Virus record (IMG/VR): IMGVR_UViG_2751185961_000003
Location: 1 to 7,753 of that record
DNA from: a virus
Lineage: Duplodnaviria > Heunggongvirae > Uroviricota > Caudoviricetes
Strand: one strand, 5' to 3'
Length of the DNA: 7,753 bases
Part shown: positions 1 through 7,753 of the stretch, piece by piece
Layout: each line of letters starts with the position of its first letter
How positions within the stretch are numbered: the first letter of the stretch is position 1
Position numbers and translations under genes: made by a program
Notes under the pieces: generated by a model
What the model saw: the letters and a program-made list of their open reading frames with translations, nothing else
What the model was told of the DNA's origin: nothing
The model's database searches: none

Positions 1-95
1 GCCAGGTCATAAACCTCTTCGGCAGTGACATCGCTGTTCAGTCCCATTTCATGGCGATATATGATTTTTTCTACTCGTTGTTTTGTGATCGTCAT
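1..95 (-). CDS. Hypothetical protein, N-terminal part only (runs off the window start); begins MTITKQRVEKIIYRHEMGLNSDVTAEEVYDL
   Basis: ATG at 93-95 on minus strand with purine-rich GGAG/AAGAG upstream; open frame to position 1; same orientation as the neighbouring operon. Not in ORF track because it is truncated. Confidence 0.4.
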   Translation of the reverse strand, partial: MTITKQRVEKIIYRHEMGLNSDVTAEEVYDL

Positions 96-125
96 TTTTC
101 TCTTCACTCCGATATACAAGGATTA

Positions 126-365
126 CTACACCCCCTCTGCTGATTGCGCGAGCTGGATCCCCTGGTTCCATGCCGTCAATTCCGAAGGCTTCGAAAATGC
201 ATCCATTGCCTTCTGGCGTTGCTCCTGCTTACGGCGTTTATTCCATTTTTTCATGAACAACAGTGACAGCCATCGTCCGCTGCTGAACATGATGTAGAAA
301 TAACCAAGAAGTGCCAGGCCGGTGTTCAGGGCCATATCAATCGTTATCGCCGGGTCAATATTCAC
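126..365 (-). CDS. Small predicted membrane protein (79 aa): N-terminal hydrophobic helix then a highly basic K/R-rich segment
   Basis: GTG start at 363-365 preceded by AGGAGG with 6-nt spacer; start overlaps the 3' end of the upstream gene; hydrophobic stretch LALLGYFYIMF followed by KKWNKRRKQEQRQK. Confidence 0.5.
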   Translation of the reverse strand: MNIDPAITIDMALNTGLALLGYFYIMFSSGRWLSLLFMKKWNKRRKQEQRQKAMDAFSKPSELTAWNQGIQLAQSAEGV

Positions 366-657
366 TGCCCACCTCCTGAAAAATCACCGCATGGCCCAGT
401 TTCTCCGCCAGTGCCAGCTCAGCCCTTGCACCTGCCGACTGCTGCCAGCCTTTCAGCATGTAAACCGCATCCACGCAACGGAGCATTGCCATGCAAATAT
501 CCATGTAGTGTGGTTGAGTCAGCCCGTCCGGAAGTACTGCCGGGTTTAAAACGGTATGCCCTTCCCGTTTCAGTACCTCTTCCGCATTGTGAAACGCCTC
601 ACGGTTGAAATTTTTATACCCGGTCATTGGACCGGCGATATAGACTCTCACCCTCAC
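355..657 (-). CDS. DUF4406 / nucleoside 2-deoxyribosyltransferase-like prophage protein (100 aa)
   Basis: Translation MRVRVYIAGPMTGYKNFNREAFHNAEEVLKREGHTVLNPA matches the family's N-terminal YIAGPMTG motif from memory; GTG start at 655-657 with AGGAGG 7 nt upstream; GTGA start/stop overlap with the upstream gene. Confidence 0.65.
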   Translation of the reverse strand: MRVRVYIAGPMTGYKNFNREAFHNAEEVLKREGHTVLNPAVLPDGLTQPHYMDICMAMLRCVDAVYMLKGWQQSAGARAELALAEKLGHAVIFQEVGSEY

Positions 658-1046
658 TCCATCACCTCCTGAAAGTTTCCCCGATAGAACGCCAGCACAC
701 GCTGCATAACTTCGCTCCTCCTGCTCTCACGACAAATTATGTTCTGCCGTCTGTTGTAACGACGTATTTCTCCGTCAGGTAACTTTCGAATCAGTGTCGG
801 GTCAGCAGCCTTCTCCGGTGTCTTACGCCATACGCGATACGCCTGCTCTGATGGAAATACCCCGCAACCAGAGAGCCAGACATCACCACTGGCCGCAAGC
901 GCACCAGATAAACGACGAATAGCGGTCTTACTGACACCCGTTTTATCTGCCAGTTGTCGAAAAGTTTCTCGTCCGCTCAGGCGCACGAATTCCACAATGC
1001 GCGCCTTCACTTCTTCCCGCTCTTCTGGTGTAAATACTTTTGCCAT
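654..1046 (-). CDS. Helix-turn-helix domain protein (about 130 aa), function unknown
   Basis: ATG at 1044-1046 with GGAGG 5 nt upstream; the ORF-track start at 1061 is a TTG extension. HTH-like segment RQLADKTGVSKTAIRRL. Confidence 0.65.
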   Translation of the reverse strand: MAKVFTPEEREEVKARIVEFVRLSGRETFRQLADKTGVSKTAIRRLSGALAASGDVWLSGCGVFPSEQAYRVWRKTPEKAADPTLIRKLPDGEIRRYNRRQNIICRESRRSEVMQRVLAFYRGNFQEVME

Positions 1047-1061
1047 AAGCGCCTCCGGCAA

Positions 1062-1787
1062 TCACTTTTCCGACACAATACGACCGGATGAATCGACAAT
1101 CTGTCGAACAATATCCCGGTGCTTGTTCAGCTCCCGCAGCGCGGCGCAGACTCGCTCCCACTTCTGAACCTGACCTTTTGCCCGGCGCAGCTCGCGGTTA
1201 GCCACATGCAGCGATGGTAAAATCAGACCATCCGGATGTTTTCTGGTGAACGACGGCTGTGACTGCACTGTGACCGCCACACTTTCCGTTTTTATTTCTT
1301 CCTGTGTTTCTGCTTCCCGGACAGGTAACGCAACACCTGCTGGCTGAGGAAAGGCTTTACCATCGGTTTCCGCTACGGATGCAGCTTCCGGCTCTGCCGG
1401 TAAATCAGCGCCCGGTATGCAGTAACGAAATTTACCGCCCTGATTCACGCGAATCAGACGCCCTTTGCTGATTGCCATGGCCAGCGATGAATTCGCCCGG
1501 CGGGAGGTAATCCCGAACATCAGTGCCAGCTCATCCGCCGTTTGTGGGCCATGTTGTTCAATCGCCTCAGTCAGCATTTGCGCTGTCACTTTCGGTACCG
1601 GTGACACCGGTTCACTTTCACCAGCCTGAATCAGCCGCCACATCGAACCCTTGTTATCCGCTTCACCGCGGCGCTTCAGTTTCCACAGTTCGTTGACCGC
1701 ATCTTCACGGCTGATTCCAAGGCGGGCCGCCACTACCTGTGAAGAGGCTCTTTTCAGTGCTTTCAGTGCGTCAAATACGGTTTCCAT
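1062..1787 (-). CDS. Hypothetical prophage protein (about 241 aa) with two winged-helix-like segments; possibly DUF1627-like
   Basis: ATG at 1785-1787 with GGAGG 8 nt upstream; the ORF-track start at 1805 is a TTG extension. Family guess is from memory only. Confidence 0.6.
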
Positions 1788-1820
1788 TAAAATTTCCTCC
1801 GACAAAATCGTTTCTCAGAT

Positions 1821-2387
1821 TCAAATAAAACCAGCTGCCTTCCGGCGTTCGTATTCCTGTTTCAGCCGTTCAATTGGCGTTGGCCCTTGCGGGTGTTTCG
1901 CCCCTTCCAGTTGTCGTCGCACTGGCGGAACACTCATCCCGTTACCAACATGCTTTGCCCATTTCGTCAGTTGCCGTTCCGCAAGTCGTTTTAACTCACC
2001 CTGCGTCATCTGGCGCTCAATCCCTCTGGTACGCATTTCGAGGCAGATGTGGTACAGCACAGGCTGTGGCCACGGGTATTTATCACTCCCGTCGTATCGC
2101 CAGGATTCATTGCGCCAGCGCCGGTACTCTTCCATCACGGCATCCACCGTAAGACCAAATGGATTTGCCCCACTCTCCGAAATCAGCGCAACAAACTCAG
2201 CCAGGTCCGGGGGCCACGTTTCACCCGCCCGGCAGCGGTCCATGCACTGACGGCAGACCAGCCGGATTTGCTGTTCAGTCATCGTGCCAATCTGGGCAAT
2301 CCAGAGCTTCGAAGGTGCGGCCCCGTTCTTCTGAGTCCAGCGGTTCGAATACACCTCCCCCATAAGCTCCCACAGCTTCCAGGCCAT
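1821..2387 (-). CDS. Lambda P-like replication protein (putative DnaB helicase loader)
   Basis: Translation (WIAQIGTMTEQQ..., PPDLAEFVAL, YPW, MTQGELKRLAERQ) aligns by eye with lambda P as I remember it. Start uncertain: ATG 2385-2387 (MAWKLW) or 2361-2363, both with weak SD; the ORF-track N-terminus to 2483 looks non-coding. Confidence 0.65.
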   Translation of the reverse strand: MAWKLWELMGEVYSNRWTQKNGAAPSKLWIAQIGTMTEQQIRLVCRQCMDRCRAGETWPPDLAEFVALISESGANPFGLTVDAVMEEYRRWRNESWRYDGSDKYPWPQPVLYHICLEMRTRGIERQMTQGELKRLAERQLTKWAKHVGNGMSVPPVRRQLEGAKHPQGPTPIERLKQEYERRKAAGFI

Positions 2388-2991
2388 TTCCGTTGCTGAT
2401 AAATCCGTTGTCTCGTTCCCACTGTTCGCGTGCTGCCCGGATTTCCTGAACTGCCCGTGATGCCGTGCCACCTGATGCTGCATGGCTTACCCCCTTGCTG
2501 ACTGGTTTTACCTGTGCCCTGACGTGCTGCACGTGGCGGGCAAATTTCTGCTCCCACTGAACCTGCGTGAAAACCTTCCCCTCCGCCATCCAGTAATCCC
2601 GGAATGCGGCAAGCTCTGCAGGTGTAAATTCCGGCTCAGGCAGAGCCATACCCCACACTGCTGCCCGTTGTCGAAAATCCGACGACGGCTGCCAGACAGT
2701 AGTCATCGAAAATTTCCCGATCGGTTCGCTCAGGCCGTCCAGGTATTCAGGTTCGGCTGTCTGCAACGGCGCACCATGCGACTCACCGGTTGGAGCACTC
2801 TCGCGCATGCGCGCGTTATGTGTGGGGTTTAATTCTGTATCTGTATCTTTATCTGTCGTGACTTGTCGTGACAGATGCGTGACACGCCGTGACATGTCGT
2901 GACATTTCGTGACGCACTCACCAGAAGGTGGATATACACCGCCATCACTGTTGCGATTGGCTGTCCTGAGACCCTGGCAATGGTTCGCCAT
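2275..2991 (-). CDS. DnaT-like C-terminal domain fragment of a replication initiator (YdaU-like); frame lacks its own convincing start
   Basis: Segment GKFSMTTVWQPSSDFRQRAAVWGMALPEPEFTPAELAAFRDYWMAEGKVFTQVQWEQKFARHVQ closely parallels E. coli DnaT (GKFAMYPDWQPDADF...[20 protein letters not shown]) from memory. Upstream part of this frame runs through the iteron array with no credible SD. Confidence 0.6.
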   Translation of the reverse strand: MANHCQGLRTANRNSDGGVYPPSGECVTKCHDMSRRVTHLSRQVTTDKDTDTELNPTHNARMRESAPTGESHGAPLQTAEPEYLDGLSEPIGKFSMTTVWQPSSDFRQRAAVWGMALPEPEFTPAELAAFRDYWMAEGKVFTQVQWEQKFARHVQHVRAQVKPVSKGVSHAASGGTASRAVQEIRAAREQWERDNGFISNGNGLEAVGAYGGGVFEPLDSEERGRTFEALDCPDWHDD

Positions 2992-3041
2992 TTGGGATCA
3001 TTTGGCATGTCATGCCACAATCTGAGCCAGGCATTAGCCAT
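2829..3041 (-). CDS. N-terminal fragment of the replication initiator (YdaU/DUF1376-like), terminated inside the iteron/AT-rich region
   Basis: ATG at 3039-3041 with GAGG 5 nt upstream; conserved-looking MANAWLRLWHDMPNDPKWRTIARVSGQPIATVMAVYIHLL; stop TAA at 2829-2831; a different frame continues into the DnaT-like domain. Confidence 0.55.
   Translation of the reverse strand: MANAWLRLWHDMPNDPKWRTIARVSGQPIATVMAVYIHLLVSASRNVTTCHGVSRICHDKSRQIKIQIQN
2835..2914. repeat. Iteron-like array: six tandem about 10-bp units (consensus tgtCGTGACa) next to an AT-rich CTGTAT-repeat tract; putative replication origin
   Basis: CGTGAC at 2857, 2867, 2878, 2888, 2898, 2908 (spacing 10, 11, 10, 10, 10); each unit has TGTC/GACA dyad arms; CTGTAT tandem at 2835-2846. 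Confidence 0.7.
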
Positions 3042-3109
3042 ACTCACCTCATCTGATACCGAACTTTACCCTCGAACATCCAGAAGAAATCCGGCATGAA
3101 TATTGTTGG

Positions 3110-3535
3110 TCAATGCACGACAACAGCATTACCAGGCTGACCACCACTGTTAGTCAGGGTGCCCCAGGCGATCGCCGCTGCGACAAAATCATCCACATCT
3201 TTCACCAGCCGATCCCTCCGTTCGACGATCTCACGGTAATATTCAGAGCTGTGACTGCGCATACGGGCCACCAGCAGAGGCGGCATTGCCTTTTCGATCG
3301 CCGGTAACAGAGCCTGAATTTTTTCAACAGCATCAGGGGTGTCTTTATCCAGCCAACGGAAAATTTTCTGGGTATTACGAGCCAGGGCTTCCGGATGGCT
3401 GTCGTCGTACAGTTCCGGGAACGTCATTCCCAGCTCGAAATACGCTTTGGTAATTTTCGCAGCCGGTACTTTTTCGCCGTCCGGATGCGCCCAGACATTC
3501 ATCGCCATGCGGATGTGCTCATGTTTGATTTTCAT
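3110..3535 (-). CDS. YdaT-like (CII-like) prophage regulator, 141 aa
   Basis: ATG at 3533-3535 with GGGAG 7 nt upstream; ATGA overlap with the upstream Cro-like gene; N-terminus MKIKHEHI and gene position (Cro-like, this, replication gene) match the Rac ydaS-ydaT-ydaU arrangement as I recall it. Confidence 0.65.
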   Translation of the reverse strand: MKIKHEHIRMAMNVWAHPDGEKVPAAKITKAYFELGMTFPELYDDSHPEALARNTQKIFRWLDKDTPDAVEKIQALLPAIEKAMPPLLVARMRSHSSEYYREIVERRDRLVKDVDDFVAAAIAWGTLTNSGGQPGNAVVVH

Positions 3536-3786
3536 GAATCAACTCCCATCAGCTTTTTCGTGGTAGTTTTATTTCTGCCAATAGTTAATATTGCATCGGC
3601 AGAAAATAATCCGTTTGATGCAAGAGCGATTTTTTCAGCGTAATTGGTTTCACCGGTATATTCAGTGCGCGGCAATTTCCCGTTATTAATCCACTTGTAG
3701 ATTGCTCTTTGGCTGACACCACAAACGTCGGACACAACAGAAACACGAACAGTTTTGATTACATCTTCAAGTGTGTTCTGGTTCAT
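3532..3786 (-). CDS. Cro/YdaS-like HTH regulator (84 aa)
   Basis: ATG at 3784-3786 with GGAG 5 nt upstream; HTH VSDVCGVSQRAIYKWINNGKLP; divergent from the repressor gene. The ORF-track N-terminal extension to 3858 would cross the promoter region. Confidence 0.7.
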   Translation of the reverse strand: MNQNTLEDVIKTVRVSVVSDVCGVSQRAIYKWINNGKLPRTEYTGETNYAEKIALASNGLFSADAILTIGRNKTTTKKLMGVDS

Positions 3787-3802
3787 ACCATCTCCATAAT
3801 GT

Positions 3803-3865
3803 GAACTTTGGGTACATGATATAGCAGAACTGACAGTACATTCAATAGCGAATATCATTGAACTT
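3803..3865. promoter_or_regulatory. Divergent immunity-region promoters with operator-like repeats (PRM-like plus-strand and PR-like minus-strand)
   Basis: Plus: -35 cTGACA 3830-3835, 17-bp spacer, -10 TATCAT 3853-3858, 7 bp to the ATG at 3866 (leaderless geometry). Minus: -35 TTGAAT (plus 3840-3845), -10 TATATC (plus 3818-3823). Repeats GAAC-N5-GTACAT at 3803-3817 and 3827-3841; dyad TTCAAT-N10-ATTGAA at 3841-3862. Confidence 0.5.
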
Positions 3866-4285
3866 ATGGTTCATGAAGATAAAGCGCGTAAAGAGTTCGC
3901 CAGCAGGCTTGCGCTAGCCTGTGAAAACGCTGGTTATGAACAACACGGGAGGCAGGCAGAAATTGCCCGTCGAATGAAATTAACACCAAAAGCGGTCAGT
4001 AAATGGTTTAATGGCGAAACAATTCCTCGACGAGAGAAATTGAGGGAATTAGCAGCACTCATAGGAACAACGCCAACATATCTTTTGGGCGAGGATACAG
4101 AAAGTAGTGCGCAGGCACGCTTCTATCAGGAGTTAAACCCAAAACAAAAAATCATCATTGACCTTCTAGACGAGCTACCTGACAGTGAAACAGATGAGCT
4201 TTTAAAAACTCTTGAGGAAAAAAAACAGAAGTACAATGCAATTTACGAAGAATTAACACGAAAGAAAAAACAAAAAGCCTCTTGA
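3866..4285 (+). CDS. DicA/RacR-type (cI-like) HTH repressor without peptidase domain, 139 aa
   Basis: N-terminal XRE-type HTH (QAEIARRMKLTPKAVSKWFNGETIPRREKLRELAALIGTTPTYLLGED); acidic/coiled C-terminus (LLDELPDSETDELLKTLEEKKQ) with DicA-like architecture; no SD, consistent with a leaderless transcript. Confidence 0.75.
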   Translation: MVHEDKARKEFASRLALACENAGYEQHGRQAEIARRMKLTPKAVSKWFNGETIPRREKLRELAALIGTTPTYLLGEDTESSAQARFYQELNPKQKIIIDLLDELPDSETDELLKTLEEKKQKYNAIYEELTRKKKQKAS

Positions 4286-4373
4286 TCCAGCATAAATCCG
4301 GTAACATCCCTCCGGGTTTGTGCTTCACTTAATCCCTCCTCATTTTTTTAAACATAAAATGTACTAAAAGTAC

Positions 4374-4406
4374 TTTACACAAATGAACAAAAAGTACATC
4401 ATACAT
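4374..4406 (+). promoter_or_regulatory. Candidate left-operon promoter/operator (OL-like): third copy of GAAC-N5-GTACAT
   Basis: GAAC 4385-4388, GTACAT 4394-4399, same spacing as the two copies at 3803-3841; TTTACA at 4374-4379 is a possible -35, with only weak -10 candidates 17 bp downstream; nearby GTACT-AAAA-GTACT at 4361-4375. Confidence 0.35.
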
Positions 4407-4578
4407 CTACCAACCCACCCCGCTCCACAGAACGCCAGGCAATACTTCGAGTTACCAGGCAGTGGCAAGGGGTTAAGTAGCCAGCCCGAGGCGTAAGAAC
4501 ATGACGGCAGGGTTCAACTTTAACTATGCAGCAGGTTTTTGTTCCGCTCCCCCGGCGTTAAGGGGAAATGAGGTCAGC

Positions 4579-4731
4579 ATGGATACTATCGAGCTTGGCA
4601 ACAGCGAATCTCTGGTATGCGGCGTGTTTCCCAACCAGTACGGCACGTTTACCGCGATGACGTATACCAAAAGTAAAACGTTTAAAACCGAAGCTGGCGC
4701 GCATCGCTGGTTAGCAAGAAACTCCGACTGA
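4579..4731 (+). CDS. YdfA-like small protein (DUF1391), 50 aa
   Basis: ATG 4579-4581 with GAGG 5 nt upstream; MDTIELGNSESLVCGVFPNQYGTFTAMTYTKSKTFKTEAGAHRWLARNSD resembles Qin YdfA from memory. ORF-track start at 4501 has no SD. Confidence 0.6.
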   Translation: MDTIELGNSESLVCGVFPNQYGTFTAMTYTKSKTFKTEAGAHRWLARNSD

Positions 4732-4742
4732 TGAGGTTGACG

Positions 4743-5144
4743 ATGGAATTTAAAGATTTACCAGTACCATTCCAGGAAATGGCATCGAATGCGGTTCGCT
4801 CTCAACTGGCGACTCTTGACCTGAGTACCGTAGAAAAAGAAACCATCGATACTATATCCGGTAACGTGCGTCGTGCCTTTATAGGTCTGTATGAAGAGAA
4901 GCGCCTATTCGGCGGACAGAATTCGCCTGAAAACAAGAATCAAGCAAATGATGAGAAGCTGAAACACATTATCGCCTTACTTTTGGAAGACGCAAAACGT
5001 CTACAGCAACTGGAACCAAATGCAGGCACAGAGGCCCGCATTTGGATTGCCATGAAATCACTCAAATGTGAAAGCAGTGATTATTTCAAAACAACAATTA
5101 AAACTACTCAACTTTCGGGAGAGCTACTGAAGAAATTGCCATAA
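4743..5144 (+). CDS. Hypothetical protein (133 aa), no family recognised; sits where ydfB/ydfC lie in Qin
   Basis: ATG 4743-4745 with GAGG 6 nt upstream; alternatively ATG 4731 overlapping the upstream stop (TGATG). Helical-looking, no transmembrane segment. Confidence 0.6.
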   Translation: MEFKDLPVPFQEMASNAVRSQLATLDLSTVEKETIDTISGNVRRAFIGLYEEKRLFGGQNSPENKNQANDEKLKHIIALLLEDAKRLQQLEPNAGTEARIWIAMKSLKCESSDYFKTTIKTTQLSGELLKKLP

Positions 5145-5383
5145 GAGCATGGTCTTTCTCTTGTTCTGCAAGATGAGCATTAATACCTGGTATGGTTTTT
5201 TCAAATTTATCTATCTGTTGAATAACAACTTCGCGGTATACGTTTGTTTTTGTACCACCAAGCGCAGCCGTTAATGCAGAAAGCATATTTAGTATCATAT
5301 CAGTACGATATGAAAAGAATCCTGATAGCTTCATCTTGTTTTTCAATAATAGATTGCAGGGCCTCAATTTGCTTTTTATCCAT
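5104..5383 (-). CDS. AT-rich convergent ORF with frame ambiguity: 27-aa peptide from the SD-supported ATG, or a frameshifted about 90-aa protein
   Basis: AGGAGG (5389-5394) 5 nt upstream of ATG 5381-5383 gives MDKKQIEALQSIIEKQDEAIRILFISY then stop; the 94-aa track ORF is in another frame whose GTG start (5386-5388) abuts the SD. 3' end overlaps the plus-strand gene by 41 nt. Confidence 0.3.
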
Positions 5384-5704
5384 TTCACCCTCCTGAGGGT
5401 TGGTAATTAAGGAGTTCTCCACGGGTCAGGTGGAGTGCGTGCGCCGGACACGGGTGAGCATCCGGCACTGACAGTTTACTGAAAGGATATGTCCCTGAAA
5501 AGTCAGGGCATAACGCGAAAGCGCACGGCGAAATTGGTCTCTCTGTACGGTGTCGTTAAATTTAGTTCGACCGTGCACTTCCGGTTGTGGCACTCCGCGA
5601 AATGGCGCGGCGGTAAGTATGGCTGGGGTTTCCTCCATTGCTCCAGAAAATGCACCGGGTTGTCAGGTTGACCATACGCTTAAGTGACAGCCCCGCCACA
5701 ATAC

Positions 5705-5762
5705 CCATGCGTAGTCTTTGGTGGCATCAGTTCTACTCCGTGACTGCTCTGCCACCCTTTTT
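5705..5762 (+). ncRNA. dicF: DicF-like small RNA (cell-division-inhibiting sRNA homolog)
   Basis: 3' 41 nt (tttggtggcatcagttctactccgtgactgctctgccaccc + T5) about 90% identical to E. coli K-12 DicF as I remember it, with a compensatory stem change (GGCGG/CCGCC to GGTGG/CCACC); located just upstream of a dicB homolog. Confidence 0.55.
5720..5762 (+). terminator. Intrinsic terminator-like hairpin forming the DicF 3' end
   Basis: Stem GGTGGCA (5720-5726) / TGCCACC (5750-5756) followed by CTTTTT (5757-5762). Confidence 0.5.
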
Positions 5763-5944
5763 AAAGTGAATTTTGTGATGCGGTGAATGCGGCTATGCGC
5801 ACGCGGAACAGTTAAAACCGTAAAGTGGTCTTTTACGGGGCGTAACGGGCATCCTTCTGTATTCCGGCGTTAATTGTTAACTGGTTAACGTCACCTGGAG
5901 GCACCAGGCACTGCATCACAAAATTCATTGTTGAGGACGCGATA

Positions 5945-6133
5945 ATGGAAACGTTATTACCAAACGTTAATACGTCTGAAGGTTGTTTTGATATTGGTGT
6001 TCTGCTCAGTAACCGGGAGTTTACGGAAGATGCCATTAAGATGAGAAAATATGAACCTTATCTTCTCAATGATAATTCCATACTTTCCAGAATTGCCCTT
6101 CTTGAACTTGGTATTATCGGAGAACAGCAGTGA
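5945..6133 (+). CDS. dicB: DicB-like cell division inhibitor, 62 aa
   Basis: METLLPNVNTSEGCFDIGVLLSN... closely resembles K-12 DicB N-terminus (MKTLLPNVNTSEGCFEIGV...) from memory; GAGG 8 nt upstream of ATG; follows the dicF-like element. Confidence 0.8.
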   Translation: METLLPNVNTSEGCFDIGVLLSNREFTEDAIKMRKYEPYLLNDNSILSRIALLELGIIGEQQ

Positions 6134-6318
6134 CTTCAGCGTTTGCACTGATAATGACCGTTTTTCTTATAACGGGTGAGCCGCAGAATGTGATTACCGG
6201 AATTTATGACAGTAAGTCATCCTGCATTCAGGTAAGGGACGAACAAAAAATCCCCGGTGAATGCCTCCCGTTAAAAAAAGTATCGCTGTACCTGAATAAC
6301 GAAACACCGGCTGGATAA
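6130..6318 (+). CDS. YdfD-like small protein (62 aa)
   Basis: GTG start overlapping the dicB stop (GTGA) with GGAG 7 nt upstream; MTSAFALIMTVFLITGEP... has a hydrophobic N-terminus and sits where ydfD follows dicB in Qin. Confidence 0.6.
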   Translation: MTSAFALIMTVFLITGEPQNVITGIYDSKSSCIQVRDEQKIPGECLPLKKVSLYLNNETPAG

Positions 6319-6410
6319 CCCGCCAGCCATATTAACGCCATACCAACGGATTAAAAATGCCAGCAATGGCAGGAATTTGTTCATCCTTAAAATGGTTATG
6401 AGGTTTATCA

Positions 6411-7753
6411 ATGAACGCTGATAAAGAAGAAATTGCACTATATTACGAAGCCAAAAATGACAAAGTCAGAAAACGCCTTGGGATTAAAGGTGGTTTTTAC
6501 TGGCGCACAGCAAAAAAATTATCGGTTGCAATATCACGCGGTGTTGCTGCAATGGACGATGCCGGATTTGACGAAGAGGATTTTAAAAAACCCATCCGCG
6601 TCCATTTACCCGTTGTGAATGACCTTCCACCGGAAGGTGTGTTTGATACTGAATTCTGCAACCGATACGAAAAAGGCGGAGAAGATGGTATCACAATGAT
6701 ATTTATAGCGCCCTCCCCCTCAGTTCAGGACAAACCAGCCAGCACTGACAATACCAACGTCAATGGCGAAGACATGGCTGAGATTGAGGATAATATGCTC
6801 CTGCCGATTTCCGGTCAGGAACTGCCCATTCGCTGGCTTGCGCAACATGGCAGCGAAAAACCGGTAACGCACGTTTCACGAGAAGAACTTCAGGCATTAC
6901 ATATCGCACGAGCTGAAGAACTACCGGCTGTTACTGGCCTGGCTATTTCCCACAACACAAAGCTGCTCGACCCGCTGGAGATTCGCGACCTTCACAAATT
7001 GGTACGCGACACTGACAAAGTTTTCCCTAATCCCGTTAATTCCAGTCTGGGGTTCATGACTGCTTTTTTCGAAGCATACCTGGACACTGACTATACCGAT
7101 CGAGGTCTGCTGACAAAAGAGTGGATGAAAGGAAATCGTGTTTCTCGCATCACCCGCACGGCTTCCGGTGCAAATGCCGGTGGCGGAAATAAAACCGATC
7201 GTAATCCTGACTTAGTACACACCCTCGATACTCTGGATGTGGAGGCTGCAGCAGCCACGCTTCCGATGGATTTTAATATTTATGAAATTCCCGGGAGCGT
7301 TTATCGTCGCGCAAAAGAAATCGTCCTGAAAAAAGAAAGTCCGTTCAGGGAATGGTCCGCAGCACTTCGCGCAACCCCTGGTATCCTGGACTATTCCCGC
7401 GCAGCTATTTTTGCACTTATCCGAAGCGCCCACCCTGAGTTTTATCACTACCCGGGGCGCCTTCAGGGGTATATCAATGCCAACCTGACAGAAACTGATC
7501 ACGAGAATCCCACAGCTGAAACGCTCATGGCTGCCCGGCATACACCGGAAAAAGATATCCTGGAAGAAATTAACGGCGGACTGGCTGCTGAGTGCAAAAC
7601 AGAAGAAGAAAAAAATGATGAAGATAACCCGCAGCCGCTGGATGACAAGTCACAGGTAAAAGTTACCGCTGACGAAGTAAACAAAATTATGCAGGCAGCC
7701 AATATCAGCCAGCCTGACGCCGATAAGTTGCTTGCTGCCTCTCGCGGAGAATT
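6411..7753 (+). CDS. Large RecE-like (exodeoxyribonuclease VIII, N-terminal region) ORF, truncated at the window end (447 codons seen, no stop)
   Basis: ATG 6411 with GAGG 7 nt upstream; my own translation is open to position 7753. Segments NVNGEDMAEIEDNMLLPISGQELPIRWLAQHGSEKPVTHVSR and KLLAASRGE match my recollection of Rac RecE. Absent from the ORF track because it lacks a stop. Confidence 0.55.
   Translation, partial: MNADKEEIALYYEAKNDKVRKRLGIKGGFYWRTAKKLSVAISRGVAAMDDAGFDEEDFKKPIRVHLPVVNDLPPEGVFDTEFCNRYEKGGEDGITMIFIAPSPSVQDKPASTDNTNVNGEDMAEIEDNMLLPISGQELPIRWLAQHGSEKPVTHVSREELQALHIARAEELPAVTGLAISHNTKLLDPLEIRDLHKLVRDTDKVFPNPVNSSLGFMTAFFEAYLDTDYTDRGLLTKEWMKGNRVSRITRTASGANAGGGNKTDRNPDLVHTLDTLDVEAAAATLPMDFNIYEIPGSVYRRAKEIVLKKESPFREWSAALRATPGILDYSRAAIFALIRSAHPEFYHYPGRLQGYINANLTETDHENPTAETLMAARHTPEKDILEEINGGLAAECKTEEEKNDEDNPQPLDDKSQVKVTADEVNKIMQAANISQPDADKLLAASRGE

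Follow-up and report, generated by a model that had tools for sequence, protein, structure and literature searches.

The dicBF locus is a textbook cryptic-prophage operon, and the stretch of DNA studied here raises the question of what a small gene is doing inside it in the opposite orientation. The stretch (the window) comprises 7,753 nucleotides (nt), positions 1 to 7,753 of IMG/VR virus record IMGVR_UViG_2751185961_000003, and is the immunity and early-left (dicBF-type) operon region of a lambdoid Escherichia coli prophage of the Qin/dicB type. Between the ydfA-like gene and the dicF leader lie two separate things, a chimeric plus-strand gene for a 133-amino-acid (aa) protein and a single-gene minus-strand cassette that converges on it. 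A preliminary description of the window had taken both for one unassigned accessory insert; its observations held in every detail, and its interpretation held in part. On balance, we favor the view that the cassette is a separately expressed, one-gene moron in a polymorphic slot of the dicF 5' untranslated region (UTR), that it shares a leader with the other occupants of that slot, that one extra T has killed it in this copy, and that its 133-aa neighbor is chimeric.

The minus-strand gene and its frameshift

The elements of the convergent pair are as follows.

5104-5383, minus strand: frameshift-inactivated gene for a 92-aa small protein (phrog_18692), whose intact form is WP_000358771.1 of E. 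coli E2348/69
5300-5302, minus strand: premature TGA that closes the 27-codon frame
5313-5316, minus strand: frameshift site, a run of four T (A4 on the plus strand), T3 in intact alleles
5104-5144, both strands: 41-nt overlap of the convergent 3' ends
4743-5144, plus strand: chimeric 133-aa operon gene (phrog_1363)

The preliminary description had noted a consensus Shine-Dalgarno (SD) sequence, a broken frame, overlapping 3' ends, and AT-rich composition, and all of these are present. AGGAGG lies at 5394-5389 on the minus strand, 5 bases before an ATG at 5383-5381. The frame runs for 27 codons to TGA at 5302-5300, and a 94-codon frame in another register extends from GTG at 5388 to TAG at 5106-5104. 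The 133-aa open reading frame (ORF) is found at 4743-5144 as described, and the convergent 3' ends share 41 nt (5104-5144). GC content is 0.365-0.37 over 5100-5399, compared to 0.50-0.55 on each flank.

Alignment with E2348/69, whose minus strand carries the annotated, uninterrupted 92-aa ORF WP_000358771.1, revealed a single extra T (T4 instead of T3 at window 5313-5316) and one substitution nearby. The extra base falls in the run near 5312-5320 where a break had been suspected. A 751-bp query that runs from the end of ydfA through the insert into the first part of the dicF leader was compared by megablast with 5,426 complete E. coli genomes; 124 hold at least 80% of it, and among the best matches listed most span 750 bases, not 751. 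An 81-bp probe centered on the frameshift site, run on the complete E. coli genomes, was matched by 126 of 126 carriers, and in a spread listing of its matches the span was 81 bases in 3 of 60 rows and at most 80 in the rest. Taken together, the probe listing and the megablast results put the number of T4 genomes at five. Of 55 IMG/VR loci, T3 with an uninterrupted 92-aa ORF is found in 50, T4 with the stop after 27 codons in four, and a form shortened at residue 68 in one.

Related prophages thus answer the question of whether the ORF is intact elsewhere: it is in about 120 of the 126 genomes and 50 of the 55 loci. The broken frame, which had been presented as a trait of the element, is a minority allele (about 5/126 genomes, 4/55 loci). 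The T4 allele occurs on two backgrounds, with Y or H at the codon preceding the premature stop, and other broken alleles have frameshifts elsewhere (P0010, P0013, P0014/P0016). Because T3 dominates and the other breaks lie at different sites, the window copy is a minority pseudogene allele, dead in this strain, and not a programmed frameshift.

A programmed-frameshift or phase-variable gene was rejected as a class for this element, the intact T3 being the conserved state. It is very improbable that the T run is such a site and that the window allele still makes the full-length protein. The sequence CUU UUC after AGGA is loosely like the prfB +1 site, and the T4 allele is recurrent, in several assemblies and on both the Y and H backgrounds. 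However, T3 and one continuous frame are found in 91-96% of copies, slipped-strand phase variation would need a longer run than 3-4 nt, UUC in the A site is neither a hungry nor a stop codon, and the broken alleles at other sites fit random decay.

A small protein family under purifying selection

By the pattern of substitution, the minus-strand ORF is a real prophage gene, intact elsewhere and under purifying selection. Copies in Salmonella (L004) and in another enterobacterial contig (L008) have 71-73% protein identity, and among the three lineages the ratio of nonsynonymous to synonymous substitution rates (dN/dS) is 0.08-0.25 at dS 0.67-0.89, both inside and outside the overlap. The family is tiny, with 22 proteins in a 5.8-billion-protein set. 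An exhaustive profile search of 1.84 billion representatives gave 13 family matches and brought four remote members of 90-93 aa. No match was found by tblastn of the 92-aa protein in 50,697 phage genomes, and no family member was found in a scan of species-representative genomes.

AlphaFold predicted three helices for the 92-aa protein (predicted local distance difference test, pLDDT, 77.6); in the model the three helices are amphipathic, and no hydrophobic run exceeds about 15 residues. Structure and profile searches returned generic helical matches only, and sequence profile searches of the Protein Data Bank returned nothing. PHROGs placed the 92-aa and 133-aa proteins solely in families of unknown function, and PADLOC-DB v2 gave no hit for the 92-aa protein.

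Known protein types were tried and rejected. A RelB-like antitoxin model (NF048017) scored 15.9 bits against a cut-off of 50, and there is no toxin-family neighbor. For a type I toxin-antitoxin system, there is no small hydrophobic membrane toxin, and the partner is a protein gene, not a small RNA (sRNA). IraP-type anti-adaptors (PF10796) are alike in size (86-93 aa) and in being all-helical, and weak collinear Pfam matches were obtained for one distant family member, the best-scoring one, and one other cassette (15.1 and 14.4 bits). However, both scores are below the threshold of 23.2 bits, the hhalign probability is 0.3%, and the 92-aa protein is not a member.

A polymorphic slot behind a shared leader

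The cassette gene is preceded by a structured leader (H2, H1, and an anti-SD/SD stem) that occupies the opposite strand of the dicF 5' UTR at its left end.

5395-5705, plus strand: long 5' UTR of dicF, common to K-12 Qin, with the cassette leader antisense in its left end
5389-5394, minus strand: SD sequence AGGAGG of the cassette gene, which can pair with an anti-SD CUCCU at 5414-5410
5417-5435, minus strand: leader hairpin H1 (CUCCAC / GUGGAG)
5441-5468, minus strand: leader hairpin H2, an 11-bp stem with U.G wobbles possible only in minus-strand RNA
5473-5501, minus strand: promoter-like site TTTTCA-17-TAAACT, with 8/12 consensus bases

IMG/VR was scanned for H2 with the pattern GCCGGA-N12-TCCGGCGCAC, which returned at least 120 loci; with the loci found earlier, there are at least 182 occurrences. 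At 54-65 nt downstream of H2, an SD sequence and ATG begin ORFs that are 57-99 aa long, have GC contents of 0.34-0.43, and belong to at least 11 unrelated kinds. About 37 of the at least 182 occurrences have an empty, Qin-like slot. Two leader types are found, each common to unrelated ORFs, and the identity reaches the ATG. The minus-strand gene therefore fills a slot in which unrelated small ORFs replace each other behind one leader. The slot ORFs are listed below.

92 aa: the window's gene and its family
91 aa: distantly related to the 92-aa family (hhalign probability 96%)
77 aa: phrog_10348
73 aa: phrog_7249
64 aa: phrog_4987
61 aa and 80 aa: Cys-rich, phrog_10133
69 aa: phrog_4274
99 aa: no PHROG match
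94 aa: GhoS-like, PF11080 (21.2 bits, gathering score 21, E 2.8e-4)
57 aa and 61 aa: no PHROG match
63 aa: zinc ribbon
TTG-start ORF of L101: read by eye from the leader listing

The PHROGs of the cassettes differ from one another and are all of unknown function. Ten alternative cassettes were searched with PADLOC, and the sole match was that of the 63-aa zinc-ribbon ORF to candidate PDC-M14A (E 3.5e-4, 19 bits), which is confined to the zinc-ribbon residues. The 94-aa GhoS-like ORF is of the same kind as the convergent ORF of phages phiES15 and pAEv1818. The literature describes the operon and its long UTR, and no minus-strand gene or exchangeable cassette was found there; a search on the protein accessions and on antisense transcription start sites near ydfC found nothing relevant.

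The strand of the leader and its candidate promoter

Pairing in the leader is biased toward the minus strand. In a test of 21 distinct leaders, with a structure derived from these same sequences, 87.3% of leader cells pair, compared to 35-51% after sliding the partners one to three columns. Pair 104-127 of the SD stem is AU in 12 leaders and UA in nine, and H1 pair 79-96 is compensatory (UA 9, AU 8, CG 1, GU 1). The U.G pairs of H2 are present in 19-20 of the 21 leaders and would be A.C mismatches in plus-strand RNA. Of 30 unique leaders, 26 fold more stably as the sense strand than as its complement (means -32.9 and -28.8 kcal/mol), and the folding z-score of the window leader is -3.9. No Rfam family matched the leader, even with a permissive threshold.

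A -10-like hexamer lies 6-7 nt upstream of the H2 base in five different upstream sequences: TAAACT (window), TAAGCT, TGtTATTAT, TAAAAT (9/12 in the scan), and TGtTAACAT. The candidate in the window has its predicted start at the H2 base, and no LexA box was seen by eye upstream of the cassette gene. In L016, outside a dicF context, an H2-like stem with a compensatory change, seen by eye, precedes family member P0145.

An alternative with a low probability in our estimate is that the cassettes have no promoter of their own, that the hairpins serve the plus-strand dicF precursor (for example, as RNase III substrates), and that cassettes gather at the UTR edge solely because a recombination boundary lies there. 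This would fit a UTR that is structured and processed on the plus strand (PMC10448788), the retention of H1 and H2 by K-12 in the absence of a cassette, and the weakness of the promoter-like site in the window. However, the U.G and G.U pairs of H2 become A.C mismatches on that strand, the sense strand is the better folder in most leaders, conserved sequence including the SD reaches exactly to the ATG of unrelated ORFs, and the H2-like stem of L016 lies outside a dicF context. Cassette ORFs are also under purifying selection, so they must be expressed somehow.

K-12 Qin itself (L003 3638-3666, minus strand; NC_000913.3 1649137-1649165) has kept the promoter-like site, H2 with one weakening base change, and H1, with no cassette; the site is a possible orphan antisense promoter facing ydfC. 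A hairpin with an A-rich loop, CCCTGAAAAGTCAGGG at 5493-5508 on the plus strand, is reminiscent of lambda boxB. Qin, Salmonella, and most leaders have kept this hairpin, which overlaps the -35-like TTTTCA of the minus-strand candidate.

The 133-aa protein as a chimera

The 133-aa gene can be divided into four parts.

About 4743-4907, plus strand: N-module
4908-4949, plus strand: low-confidence linker
About 4950-5060, plus strand: conserved C-module core LKHIIALLLEDAKRLQQLEPNAGTEARIWIA
5061-5144, plus strand: weakly constrained tail

The 133-aa protein is chimeric: a common operon module at its N-terminus is joined to a C-module. Other prophages have its N-terminal ~55 residues attached to quite different C-termini, and PHROG matches divide the protein likewise. 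The C-module core is found as a stand-alone gene of 71-95 aa in Salmonella, in L008, in Cronobacter phage phiES15 (gp10), and in Aeromonas phage pAEv1818 (gp20); in L008 and phiES15 this gene stands immediately after a ydfB homologue. The core has a dN/dS of 0.06-0.15, compared to 0.5-1.2 in the tail, and the last 13 codons of the 133-aa gene are simply the conserved C-terminus of the 92-aa protein read in antisense. The structure model of the 133-aa protein is poor (pLDDT 60.7), and PADLOC matched it to HerA only (E 0.022).

Alignment of the window with K-12 Qin shows homology through ydfA, the final part of the common left block, to about 4731 and again from about 5395, and Qin has no cassette gene at the corresponding place. 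Window 4732-5394 therefore stands in for Qin ydfB-ydfC. The preliminary description had allowed that the 133-aa protein might be a fused or renamed ydfB/ydfC homolog. There is no sequence homology: BLASTP for YdfB/YdfC gave E 1.7 and no alignment, and hhalign of the C-module profile with YdfC gave a probability of 0.2%. Since the C-module is a stand-alone gene after ydfB in other phages, the 133-aa gene is nonetheless a fused positional counterpart of ydfC. The window and Qin are thus alike in having the interval between ydfA and the dicF UTR occupied, and unlike in that the window proteins show no similarity to YdfB or YdfC and Qin has no minus-strand gene.

In the related prophage L011, an 88%-identical 133-aa gene retains its tail, a different 61-aa minus-strand ORF stands next to it, and of the 92-aa gene no more than a remnant of the 3' end is left. 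From this arrangement, the exchangeable unit is the minus-strand gene alone. The claim of an acquired moron therefore stands for the minus-strand segment, an accessory cassette of foreign composition carried by 126 of 5,426 complete E. coli genomes, and fails for the 133-aa protein, which was not acquired as a unit.

Other features of this gene were noted. An upstream in-frame ATG at 4731 (plus strand) overlaps the ydfA stop (ATGA) and would yield a 137-aa product; some database entries use this start (P0086, P0090), and RefSeq takes the 133-aa start. About 96 bp of the C-module core (4956-5051, plus strand) have 79-85% DNA identity to the Cronobacter and Aeromonas phages with unrelated flanks; synonymous differences suggest constraint at the protein level, and the identity island is notably sharp. 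In phiES15 (L009 2735-3022, minus strand), pAEv1818 (L010 2736-3017, minus strand), and L117, a convergent ORF of 93-95 aa overlaps the end of the C-module gene. It is unannotated in phiES15, and the phiES15 and pAEv1818 copies have no Pfam match.

Genomic contexts of the family

All members of the 92-aa family converge on a neighboring gene. In E. coli (the window and E2348/69), the order is repressor, ydfA, 133-aa gene, and the converging 92-aa gene with its 41-nt overlap. Salmonella and L008 have an E. coli-like arrangement in which the partner is a stand-alone 71-aa gene. The L012 member is convergent with an unrelated 214-aa gene located behind a Cox-like gene, again with a 41-nt overlap, and the tail of the 214-aa protein ('...PEELLIRCS') resembles the tails of C-module proteins ('LSEELLKKC'). 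Since similar tails are found on unrelated proteins, the overlap and the tail are dictated by the conserved C-terminus 'HALMxISSVALP' read in antisense. The members in L013 and L016 converge on a cI-type S24 repressor gene, and those in L014 and L015 adjoin an integrase. The common theme in these sequences is a single small gene opposed to its neighbor and, in prophage contexts, located beside the immunity switch.

L016 has its own terminator after the family member, which is faced by a strong leftward promoter, TTGACA-17-GATTAT with a TG (1000-1028, minus strand), downstream of the cI-type gene. The promoter reads antisense into the 90-aa member and onward to a 76-aa gene. From this position and direction it is probably pL, with the family member antisense in the pL leader.

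Conserved adjacency might instead indicate that the 92-aa protein and the C-module of the 133-aa protein make up a two-gene toxin-antitoxin-like or defense pair whose mRNAs cross-regulate through the 41-nt overlap, a reading that we consider improbable. Adjacency and overlap are kept in E. coli, Salmonella, and a third lineage, purifying selection acts on both cores, an alternative cassette is GhoS-like (a type V antitoxin fold), and the 92-aa protein has the weak RelB-like match at 15.9 bits. However, distant family members have no C-module neighbor, and the C-module gene pairs with other convergent genes in phiES15, pAEv1818, and L011. The overlap and tail are seen as well on the 214-aa gene, which is unrelated; the overlap is therefore a property of the cassette end, not the mark of a partnership. 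The RelB match is far under its 50-bit cut-off, and neither protein has a hydrophobic or nuclease-like feature.

Proposed mode of action

If the cassette is a separate moron as we favor, it would have its own sigma-70 promoter, and the transcript would start at H2 as a 5'-terminal hairpin. Transcription of the cassette would oppose the DicA-repressed dicB promoter and, because it faces that promoter, the cassette would be expressed when the operon is silent; its product would be made in the lysogen and perhaps also shortly after infection. Once the operon is active, convergent transcription and an RNA duplex of about 280 bp or more with operon mRNA would oppose the cassette. Translation would probably be gated by the SD-sequestering stem. 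The 92-aa product, as a protein without enzymatic or membrane features, probably binds another protein and may be a host-modulating, exclusion, or counter-defense factor.

Several points weigh against this account. A consensus promoter scan of the window reported no minus-strand site and did not report the 8/12 candidate, there is no terminator after the 92-aa gene in the window, and a K-12 primer-extension study, in which only the plus strand was examined, found no additional operon promoter. The covariation comes from related sequences with few independent events (two leader types and three or four outliers). Several independent frameshift alleles exist, so the 92-aa gene is dispensable. Pfam, NCBIfam, and PADLOC scans of the 92-aa and 133-aa proteins gave nothing significant, and the exclusion, toxin, or defense role suggested in the preliminary description accordingly receives no assignment. 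Part of the leader's conservation could also stem from the plus strand, where the dicF UTR has structure and processing of its own (PMC10448788).

A broader proposal, which we put forward as tentative, is that the dicF-UTR antisense unit is an expression platform (promoter, 5' stabilizing hairpin, and SD stem) for swapped small effectors, that it gates DicF and DicB, and that the 92-aa family is the commonest of its cargoes. If this were true, lambdoid prophages of Enterobacteriaceae would use it to swap effectors for phage exclusion, counter-defense, or host control.

Diverse small proteins at one locus are the pattern by which anti-CRISPR loci were recognized. The slot could accordingly be an anti-defense (Acr-like) locus, with small inhibitors expressed at DNA entry from one strong shared promoter and leader to counter the host's immunity. 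Related phages do encode diverse, unrelated proteins of 57-99 aa at a single position after the same leader, and no slot protein has an enzymatic domain. We regard this as unlikely, however: no conserved helix-turn-helix (HTH; Aca-like) gene lies beside the cassettes in the contexts inspected, the cassette orientation opposes the early operon, cassette genes persist in cryptic prophages, and no similarity to known anti-defense proteins was found.

The surrounding operon

The remaining annotated features of the region are as follows.

3110-3535, minus strand: YdaT-like gene
3532-3858, minus strand: Cro/DicC-like gene
3866-4285, plus strand: DicA-like HTH repressor gene
4579-4731, plus strand: ydfA-like gene (DUF1391; Pfam PF07151, E 7e-26)
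5706-5757, plus strand: DicF sRNA (Rfam RF00039, 58.9 bits, gathering score 48)
5945-6133, plus strand: dicB
6130-6318, plus strand: DUF1482/ydfD-like gene

The DUF1391 match at 4579-4731 and the Rfam DicF match at 5706-5757 agree with the original placement of the insert between a YdfA-like gene and a DicF-like element. On the plus strand, the long dicF UTR is structured and is processed by the RNases III and E (PMC5069750, PMC10448788). Between DicF and dicB, a sub-threshold Rfam match to STnc100 was found at 5769-5922 on the plus strand (32.2 bits, gathering score 47, E 4.6e-5), and a terminator-like hairpin with a T tract at 5818-5838 on the minus strand could block minus-strand read-through into the cassette leader. 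In L011, a HigB/HigA-type toxin-antitoxin pair (1897-2561) lies between the repressor gene and ydfA, a further variable position of the same region.

Comparison with known systems

For the window itself, the meaning of these results is modest: the "broken" ORF is, by comparison with its relatives, a pseudogene allele. In about half of complete E. coli genomes, some portion of the 751-bp query finds a match. If the shared leader does drive the slot ORFs, the dicBF locus would hide a second transcription unit with exchangeable cargo. At least 11 uncharacterized small-protein families would then form a guilt-by-association list of exclusion, anti-defense, or host-modulating candidates, and the toxic DicF and DicB products might be under an extra layer of control.

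Morons, as described by Hendrix and colleagues, are extra genes inserted between conserved genes of related phages. The cassette resembles them in being present or absent at one place among related prophages (126/5426 genomes; absent from Qin), in its distinct composition (GC 0.37, compared to about 0.5; all cassettes 0.34-0.43), in an orientation independent of the operon, and in a candidate promoter of its own (weak, 8/12); a terminator is present in L016, and there is none in the window. It differs from a Hendrix-type moron in being one allele of a slot in which at least 11 unrelated ORFs share a leader up to the start codon. The upstream operon gene also overprints the 3' end of the cassette in the window.

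Convergent-promoter switches are known from temperate phages, including pR/pL interference in coliphage 186 and the lambda oop antisense RNA. As in these systems, the cassette unit faces an early lytic promoter, and interference and an RNA duplex would be expected. The opposing unit here, however, is protein cargo that varies between phages, and interference is deduced from geometry.

Genes of the rexAB, sieB, nun, or bstA type lie beside the repressor. Prophage hotspots of accessory and defense genes have been described in P2 and P4 (PMC9122126). The slot is like these hotspots in its variable cargo, its conserved flanks, and its position adjoining the immunity region of temperate phages. It is unlike them in that its cargo consists of single, very small proteins (57-99 aa), that the 92-aa protein has no PADLOC match, and that the slot is antisense within an early operon and the 5' UTR of an sRNA. 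The slot is thus an accessory-gene hotspot of temperate phages with an unusual geometry and very small cargo.

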